Of a DNA stretch of 64,000 nt, positions 15,903 to 16,265 are shown one piece after another (the stretch's first letter is position 1; each line of letters begins with the position of its first letter). The position numbers and the translations under genes are program-made. The notes beneath the pieces are model-generated. The model saw only the letters and a list, made by a program, of their open reading frames with translations. It was not told where the DNA came from and did not search any database. The DNA comes from Escherichia phage moha. The stretch lies in sequence record MN850590.1; one strand, given 5' to 3'.

Positions 15903-16265
15903 ATGAAAGCATATCAAATTCTTGAAGGTGCACATAAAGGCACTATTTATTTTGAAGACGGTACTCAAGCCCGGATTATTGTCTCTAAGACTTTTAAAGA
16001 AGACGCTATTGTAGACCCGGAAATTTTCTACGGTTTGAATGCCCGTGAAATTGAAATTGAACATCAACCTAAAGTTAAAATTGAAGGTGGTCAACACCTG
16101 AACGTTAACGTTCTGCGTCGCGAAACTCTGGAAGATGCAGTTAAGCATCCGGAAAAATATCCGCAGCTGACCATTCGTGTATCCGGTTATGCAGTTCGCT
16201 TTAACTCTCTGACTCCGGAACAGCAGCGCGACGTTATCGCTCGTACCTTTACTGAGAGTCTATAA
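15903..16265 (+). CDS. grcA: autonomous glycyl radical cofactor (GrcA/YfiD-like)
   Basis: 120 aa; C-terminal ~60 aa ([59 protein letters not shown]) match E. coli GrcA as recalled, incl. glycyl radical motif RVSGY. Confidence 0.9.

Follow-up and report, generated by a model that had tools for sequence, protein, structure and literature searches.

The window analysed here, a 64,000-nt stretch of the genome of Escherichia phage moha (MN850590.1), comes from an RB69-like T-even phage of the genus Mosigvirus. We assign its open reading frame (ORF) at 15903..16265 to gene vs.6 of RB69 and T4, which codes for T4 protein Y06I and is a homologue of the host glycyl radical cofactor GrcA (YfiD). The 120-residue product matched the Pfam family Gly_radical (PF01228) at 2e-18, with 67.3 bits against a cutoff of 22.2 bits, and its top match among solved structures was E. 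coli YfiD/GrcA (6OWR, 2e-42, residues 21-120 aligned). The gene shares 99.2% of its nucleotides with RB69 vs.6 and 92-94% with T4-type genes. At the protein level, 113 of 120 residues (94%) are identical to T4 Y06I, with all seven differences in the N-terminal half and a fully identical radical domain. Gene order in the window (e, denV, vs.8, vs.7, vs.6, vs.5, vs.4, regB, vs.1, vs, tk.4, tk.2, tk) agrees with the RB69 and T4 annotations, and both the place of the gene between vs.7 and vs.5 in the e-denV-vs-tk region and its high full-length identity are those of a T4 vs.6/Y06I orthologue. Like a stand-alone GrcA, the protein lacks the catalytic barrel of pyruvate formate-lyase (PFL), and separate genes flank it on either side. 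It is best filed, judging by these matches, as a vs.6/Y06I orthologue working like GrcA, presumably a full-length phage homologue that diverged from the host protein long ago. Its 3' half, however, departs from this history: very probably, host-to-phage gene conversion has replaced it repeatedly, each time within the stretch where the phage and host genes are alike.

Comparison with host grcA revealed a mosaic of two sharply different halves. A first reading of the DNA, made from the sequence alone, had claimed that the last ~60 codons match E. coli GrcA, including the glycyl radical motif RVSGY, and had suggested recombination or gene conversion with the host gene; alignment confirmed the match, and the suggestion is supported. 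All 60 C-terminal residues are identical to those of E. coli GrcA. Codons 61-117, hereafter the tract, agree with K-12-type grcA at 170 of 171 nt and in 56 of 57 codons, the lone difference being a synonymous ATT in place of ATC at codon 91. ATT at this codon also occurs in E. coli, where five of 5,426 genomes, that of strain D9 included, have it, and to the D9 allele the tract is identical at 171/171 nt. Codons 1-60, in contrast, could not be aligned to host grcA at the DNA level. Their product showed ~33% identity over 40 residues in a BLASTP comparison with GrcA residues 1-67 (GrcA residues 28-67, E=9e-6), and this half of the phage protein is seven residues shorter than its host counterpart. 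The tract encodes nearly the whole structured glycyl-radical domain.

The sequence-only reading had also pointed to host-like codons in the 3' half, unlike the AT-rich 5' half. This contrast is real: G+C content rises from 0.350 in the 5' half to 0.497 in the tract (0.375 in the ORFs of the window), G+C content at third codon positions (GC3) is 0.233 and 0.421, respectively (0.304 in the window's ORFs, or 0.303 as the mean of 57-codon windows), and within the tract CTG serves for five of five leucines and CCG for three of three prolines, codons with a window-wide usage of 10% and 14%. Codon usage is therefore not uniform along the gene, and the objection that it might be fails. The shift is modest, however, as 8.9% of all 57-codon windows in the phage's ORFs reach the GC3 of the tract, and on its own it is unexceptional. 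Because such GC3 values are not rare in the phage itself, we set composition aside as the chief evidence and regard nucleotide identity as decisive.

Identity of this degree greatly exceeds what conservation of the protein would bring about. When synonymous codons for the same 57-residue peptide were drawn from the window's own usage in 100,000 simulations, 133.8 +/- 3.9 of 171 bases (78%) and 23 of 57 codons were identical to the host, with a maximum of 151 bases, compared to the observed 170 bases and 56 codons. Chance identity is excluded. Natural controls gave a similar picture. Three phages with an identical C-terminal peptide (L103-L105), as well as phage Banach, whose peptide differs at the last residue only, share just ~143 of 171 nt (~84%) with any host, and the corresponding genes of T5-like, Krischvirus and Karamvirus phages show 72-82% tract identity to hosts. 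Among the hosts themselves, the E. coli tract is 91.8% identical to that of Citrobacter, 82.5% to that of Salmonella and 88% to that of Klebsiella. Finally, a megablast search with the entire window, against a set of 5,426 complete E. coli genomes, returned a single match, at 16081..16273; positions 25001-64000 gave none, despite the host homologue of nrdD, and further host-like DNA in the window, nrdD included, was thereby rejected at the level of this search. Recombination with the host is supported because nucleotide identity lies far above the expectation from protein conservation and because codon usage changes along the gene.

We then considered the donor. Over the last 60 codons, E. coli ranked first with 176 of 180 nt, followed by a cryptic Escherichia species (173) and Citrobacter (162). 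In the phage collection, nt 200-384 of E. coli grcA found matches of 95-99% identity in 632 records, and the host 5' half is absent from every one of them. More generally, all 752 matching records start at host nt ~199-202 or later, so that no phage in the collection carries a whole host grcA. Salmonella was rejected as a donor, since no phage in the collection is more than 83.8% identical to Salmonella grcA. The 100-kb record of phage AM.K1 (UNVERIFIED_ORG), in which the vs.6 frame is open for 78 codons only and lacks the MKAYQ start, was used as supporting sequence only.

A second host provides an independent case. GrcA of Klebsiella and Salmonella carries ...ETLLDAVEHPEKY..., unlike that of E. 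coli, and Klebsiella phages hold the Klebsiella variant. Phages of the genus Jiaodavirus had appeared merely 88-90% host-like in a first panel of 80 GTDB species that did not contain K. pneumoniae. Scanning metagenome contigs with an exact 23-mer from a Jiaodavirus gene overturned this view: the 23-mer occurred in 30 contigs, 25 of which, up to 620 kb long, bear host-type grcA encoding the K. pneumoniae protein (GRCA_KLEP7). Codons 61-112 of two Jiaodavirus genes agree with the Klebsiella allele at 156/156 (L189) and 155/156 nt (L118), with mismatches from codon 113 on, and the left junction falls between codons 60 and 61, exactly as in the E. coli phages. At 20 of 171 sites, the E. coli allele is distinct from that of Klebsiella. 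Because each phage genus matches the allele of its own host and is only ~88% identical to that of the other's, we conclude from these alignments that donation from Klebsiella to Jiaodavirus is independent of that from E. coli to the T4/RB69 group.

Several other records touch on Klebsiella-type sequences. The Jiaodaviruses KpV477 (L084) and Shinkou (L085) agree at 174 of 180 nt in the 5' half and at 162 of 171 nt in the tract, the reverse of the usual pattern, and 11 sites separate KpV477 from the K. pneumoniae allele, which suggests patches from different Klebsiella alleles. In Slopekvirus, the Klebsiella phages Matisse (L086), L108 and L109 carry the two Klebsiella-specific amino acid variants (L and E in ETLLDAVEHPEKY), with a tract ~30 of 171 bases away from the Klebsiella allele; an old conversion or convergent selection could account for this. 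A low-coverage metagenome contig of 1,271 nt (L182) contains a Klebsiella-type grcA of 114 residues with a 13-codon deletion in the N-terminal half, which could have arisen in assembly or exist in nature.

To what extent conversion also recurred among E. coli phages was assessed by comparing the window with T4, including its vs.6 homologue. The proportion of synonymous differences (pS) was 0.47 in vs.8, 0.56 in vs.7, 0.36 in the 5' half of vs.6, 0.09 in the tract, 0.71 in vs.5 and 0.70 in vs.4 (Fisher's test, tract versus 5' half, p=0.0035; tract versus flanking genes, p=1.5e-9). Between seven Mosigvirus and nine Tequatrovirus genes, the 5' 180 nt contain 12 fixed differences and the 171-nt tract none (p=5e-4), with similar numbers of polymorphic sites in both (17 and 21). 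Distances in the tract are additive, the four differences between the window and T4 being the sum of one between the window and E. coli and three between T4 and E. coli, which therefore places the host sequence at the node between the two phages. In addition, three E. coli polymorphisms (grcA nt 213 A/G, 240 C/T and 294 C/T) also segregate in phages, in host-like combinations. Thus, the window phage carries the D9-type allele (171/171), L093 (Mosigvirus) as well as L095 and OES_C-2 (both Tequatrovirus) the SK1144-type allele (171/171 each), the Tequatrovirus IsaacDaniel the O157:H7-type allele (171/171), to which T4 is identical at 170/171, and RB69 the K-12-type allele (170/171). Low pS, the lack of fixed differences, additive distances and allele sharing together indicate that the tract postdates the divergence of Mosigvirus and Tequatrovirus and entered these phages more than once. 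The sharing of alleles supports multiple events within the E. coli phages, with parallel mutation as a possible alternative.

The strongest competing explanation builds on that alternative. A single conversion in the ancestor of the E. coli T-even phages, plus one in Jiaodavirus, could have been followed by spread from phage to phage, the allele matches then being parallel third-position mutations. T-even phages recombine readily with each other, the shared sites comprise just three transitions, and PD112, FP43 and mar005P1 carry five to seven private differences, as expected if their tracts were never refreshed. The junctions fit as well: the left one lies between codons 60 and 61 in all 632 matching records, and the right one is nearly the same throughout. 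Nevertheless, we consider this scenario unlikely. Three phage haplotypes are identical over 171/171 nt to different extant E. coli alleles, a fourth is one change away from K-12, and both genera are represented among them; the genera differ by 12 fixed sites in the adjacent 180 nt and by none in the tract. The common left junction is better read as the limit of similarity than as a mark of ancestry because the separate Klebsiella event ends at the same codon.

Isolation hosts do not always correspond to the type of tract. IsaacDaniel (L179) is a Hafnia phage, and the Yersinia phage PYps47T (L178), also a Tequatrovirus, has a tract one to two changes from E. coli alleles. Over its full length, the gene of Salmonella phage SG1 (H35, H171) reaches 92.8% identity to its counterpart in the window, compared to only 82.7% to Salmonella grcA, and it resembles E. 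coli grcA far more closely than the Salmonella gene. In all three cases, the tract may point to E. coli as a recent host rather than to the isolation host.

Much less survives of the proposal that no recent transfer took place and that an old acquisition was held near-identical by selection on the nucleotide sequence, be it for codon optimization or for an RNA function. The tract does use the codons CTG, CCG and CGT preferred by E. coli, and host grcA is highly expressed. Still, the same-peptide phages described above encode an identical 60-residue sequence with ~28 synonymous differences, the tract diverges freely among the hosts themselves, and phage copies track particular host alleles and species instead of one optimal sequence, so that we judge selection of this kind very improbable. 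Least credible of all, and close to untenable, are a transfer in the opposite direction, from phage into E. coli or Klebsiella, and host reads contaminating the phage assemblies: two-way exchange has been reported for cyanophage psbA (PMC1484495), and the D9-type allele is rare in E. coli yet present in two Mosigviruses, but divergence among the hosts mirrors their species phylogeny in both halves of grcA, tract variants show linkage with 5' polymorphisms specific to the host, and codon usage in the tract agrees with the rest of the host gene and not with the phage, from which we conclude that transfer went from host to phage, while contamination can be excluded on the evidence of the 632 independent genomes, the RB69 and T4 references among them, that hold the tract in a continuous phage ORF with private substitutions in each.

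Recurrent conversion from the host, then, is the reading we pursue. In this model, the 171-nt stretch would be overwritten by host grcA through homologous recombination or gene conversion, repeatedly and in each case from the host infected, that is with E. coli alleles in Tequatrovirus and Mosigvirus and with a Klebsiella allele in Jiaodavirus. Of this model, the identity and boundaries of the tract, the direction of transfer, the host specificity and the plurality of events are read from the sequence comparisons, whereas the enzymes of recombination, the selective value and the ribosome-binding-site constraint are conjecture. The left junction falls at the point where similarity between phage and host ends; only ~21 of 36 bases are alike in phage codons 49-60. 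On the right, the junction between codons 117 and 118 lies just 5' of a GAG codon that is present in every phage lineage examined, unconverted ones included, and is located 8 nt upstream of the vs.5 ATG, which itself overlaps the vs.6 stop (TAATG). In phage Matisse this GAG is annotated as a ribosome-binding site, and GAG(AG), from codon 118 on, is likely the Shine-Dalgarno sequence of vs.5. Conversions that brought in the host GAA would then have been removed by selection because they cost vs.5 its ribosome-binding site; codons 119-120 vary freely among phages. In OES_C-2 (L173), vs.6 measures 357 nt, having lost 6 nt (one 'EI' unit of an EIEIE repeat) just 5' of the left junction; its codons 119-120 read AGC CTG, as in the host, after a retained GAG.

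Homologous recombination requires runs of exact identity. The GrcA-like genes of T5-like, Krischvirus, Karamvirus, Slopekvirus and Pseudotevenvirus phages belong to the same small glycyl-radical family and have a conserved RVSGY domain, but unlike vs.6 their radical-domain DNA is 72-84% identical to any host allele, with longest exact runs of 11-20 nt; by their sequences, they show the state of the gene without recent conversion. In converted phages, the runs in common with the phage's own host measure 60-158 nt. Such run lengths would fit an identity threshold followed by positive feedback, in which a first conversion, by creating ~100% identity, eases later ones and ties the phage copy to the allele pool of the host. 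A phage moving to a related host could retain enough identity to be converted again, the E. coli and Klebsiella alleles having exact runs of 31 and 26 nt in common. The machinery would be the phage recombination system acting on fragments of degraded host DNA. On balance, we favour the view that the tract is a self-reinforcing gene-conversion trap, the sole place in a virulent T-even genome that is host-like enough for repeated overwriting, though we hold this less firmly than recurrent conversion as such.

A number of observations weigh against these interpretations, in addition to the unexceptional GC3. The shared polymorphisms are three third-position transitions only, for which parallel mutation is possible, and the probability that three host polymorphic sites fall by chance among the ~21 phage-variable ones of 57 third positions is ~0.05. 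With five carriers among the 5,426 genomes, the D9-type allele is so infrequent that the perfect match of the window may be coincidence, and the small distance between genera could in part reflect converted alleles passed from one co-infecting phage to another. The left junction, identical in every converted lineage, would also fit one ancestral event per host. Krischvirus and T5-like phages infecting E. coli and Slopekvirus phages infecting Klebsiella have no host-identical tract. Exchange should be rare, given that T-even phages break down the DNA of the host and have modified cytosine in their own, and the recombination events themselves are deduced from sequences. As to protein identity, the NCBIfam equivalog TIGR04365 was missed, with 159.1 bits against a cutoff of 170 (residues 18-120 on profile positions 23-126), a shortfall that arises because the N-terminal half has diverged while remaining homologous. 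The physiological benefit considered below likewise rests on inference.

With respect to function, the sequence-only reading had proposed a phage-encoded spare part for oxygen-damaged PFL, a role already established in vitro for the T4 orthologue. According to PMC8683613, which cites Wagner et al. 2001, T4 Y06I receives a radical from PFL activase and rescues PFL cleaved by O2, and only one other 'spare part' protein is described there as experimentally validated. The same source gives YfiD a two-part layout, with residues 1-60 disordered and 61-127 structured, and ascribes to the N-terminal half a contribution to binding cleaved PFL and to efficient activation. The vs.6 protein follows this layout, the radical domain being its structured part and the N-terminal half its disordered one. 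Nothing essential distinguishes the window protein from T4 Y06I or its RB69 orthologue, and by analogy with what is established for T4, it would be a 14-kDa PFL spare part. O2 cleaves host PflB at its radical glycine; the spare part would bind the damaged enzyme, and host PflA would install the radical on Gly95, restoring PFL activity. Since the radical-domain half is identical to that of the host at 60 of 60 residues, it should fit host PflB and PflA exactly. After shut-off of host genes, the phage-made protein could keep PFL running in low-oxygen infections, supplying acetyl-CoA and ATP together with formate, which also serves class III ribonucleotide reductase, encoded by the phage as NrdD, as its reductant. 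The nrdD gene expected by the earlier reading is indeed in the window, recognized by Pfam though not by an RV[CS]GY motif search for a second protein. Support of anaerobic infection alongside nrdD is, by inference, the most likely role of vs.6.

The features discussed are collected in Table 1. A scan for promoters and terminators around vs.6 gave no promoter enrichment and nothing specific to this gene. Between vs.8 and the ORF ending at 14873 lies a perfect 7-bp palindromic hairpin (AGGCCT-AAGT-ATAGGCCT-like, 14876..14893) with a terminator-like score on both strands. A 276-residue ORF that overlaps the end of nrdD (33748..34578, + strand) has a NUMOD3 motif and a weak match to an I-TevI-type DNA-binding domain, and looks like a homing endonuclease gene. 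Outside the window, a 19-kb IMG/VR contig (L120) bears a GrcA-like ORF of 168 residues whose tract agrees with Yersinia grcA at 156/171 nt, and could be one more instance of a host-like gene, or else a stretch of host DNA under a viral label. Two other records comprise the grcA of Klebsiella sp. WOUb02 on a 275-kb plasmid-labelled record and an enterobacterial grcA in the genome of Vagococcus sp. WN89Y (L026/L034), the latter genome being probably contaminated or mislabelled.

Table 1. Features of the vs.6 locus and its functional context in the window
Feature	Position	Strand	Basis or remark
vs.6 / grcA-like coding sequence, 120 residues	15903..16265	+	ORF list, Pfam, RB69 gene order; T4 Y06I orthologue
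Phage-type 5' half, codons 1-60	15903..16082	+	33% amino acid identity to GrcA; no E. coli nucleotide match
Putative host-derived conversion tract, codons 61-117, 171 nt	16083..16253	+	Near-identity to E. coli grcA
Phage-type 3' end, GAG AGT CTA TAA	16254..16265	+	Three sense codons, all synonymously different from host
RVSGY glycyl radical motif	16176..16190	+	Translation; alignment to YfiD/PFL
Radical glycine, codon 95 (Gly95)	16185..16187	+	Translation; alignment to YfiD/PFL
Shine-Dalgarno-like GAGG, 4 nt 5' of the vs.6 ATG	15895..15898	+	Read from sequence; overlaps vs.7 stop TGA (15894-15896)
vs.5, 74 residues, translationally coupled to vs.6	16265..16489	+	ORF list; RB69 annotation
nrdD, anaerobic ribonucleotide reductase (functional context)	31938..33755	+	Pfam NRDD 1.5e-171; no host-identical DNA

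Together, these results do not reveal a new protein function, as the role of a spare part is known from T4; what they add concerns the way in which the gene evolves. T4 and RB69, which count among the best-studied viruses, are regarded as strictly virulent, as destroying the DNA of their host and as having virtually no DNA in common with it. The vs.6 tract appears to be an exceptionally clean natural case of gene conversion from a host into a lytic phage, with donor, direction and junctions resolved, and it offers an easy experimental system for measuring the rate at which virulent phages copy host DNA. It is also a possible marker of recent host. If the conversion-trap interpretation is true, the tract would be a natural record of the phage's recent host and a read-out of gene flow from hosts to lytic phages. 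Caution is warranted for phylogenies and host predictions drawn from phage metabolic genes. The division of the protein is equally informative: the radical domain, which must fit PflB and PflA, stays exactly host-like, whereas the N-terminal binding region evolves as phage sequence.

Part of this picture was known before. In an earlier comparison of T4-like genomes, vs.6 was one of a small number of functionally unassigned ORFs conserved in every genome, and only its Pfam domain was noted (PMC1524935). Because T4 Y06I is the product of the same gene, vs.6 and its biochemical role are not new, and neither is intragenic recombination between host and phage as a process. The vs.6 mosaic is new as far as we found: the searchable literature, which left out the main T4 genome review, yielded no published report of it or of a recurrent, host-specific origin, and its mentions of the gene concerned function or the Pfam domain only. 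Relative to E. coli GrcA/YfiD, the phage gene differs, besides its diverged N-terminal half, in its setting within the operon of a virulent phage and its translational coupling to vs.5. The closest precedent is provided by psbA and psbD of cyanophages, for which intragenic recombination between host and T4-like phages has been described (Zeidner 2005; Sullivan 2006, PMC1484495). Features of that precedent recur here: a segment whose similarity to the host at synonymous sites greatly exceeds that of the remaining gene, in our case the tract as compared to an unalignable 5' half; an identifiable donor and direction, with E. coli for the window and Klebsiella for Jiaodavirus; and more than one independent event, as two hosts gave different alleles to two phage groups. 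Similarly, both systems consist of a host-like metabolic gene with patchy G+C content whose segments are exchanged with the host and broadly follow host range (PMC1484495). Unlike psbA and psbD, vs.6 resides in enterobacterial T-even phages, its tract is short (156-171 nt) and bounded by sharp junctions, identity to named extant alleles reaches 100%, the direction from host to phage is clear, and only the host-similar half of the gene is exchanged.

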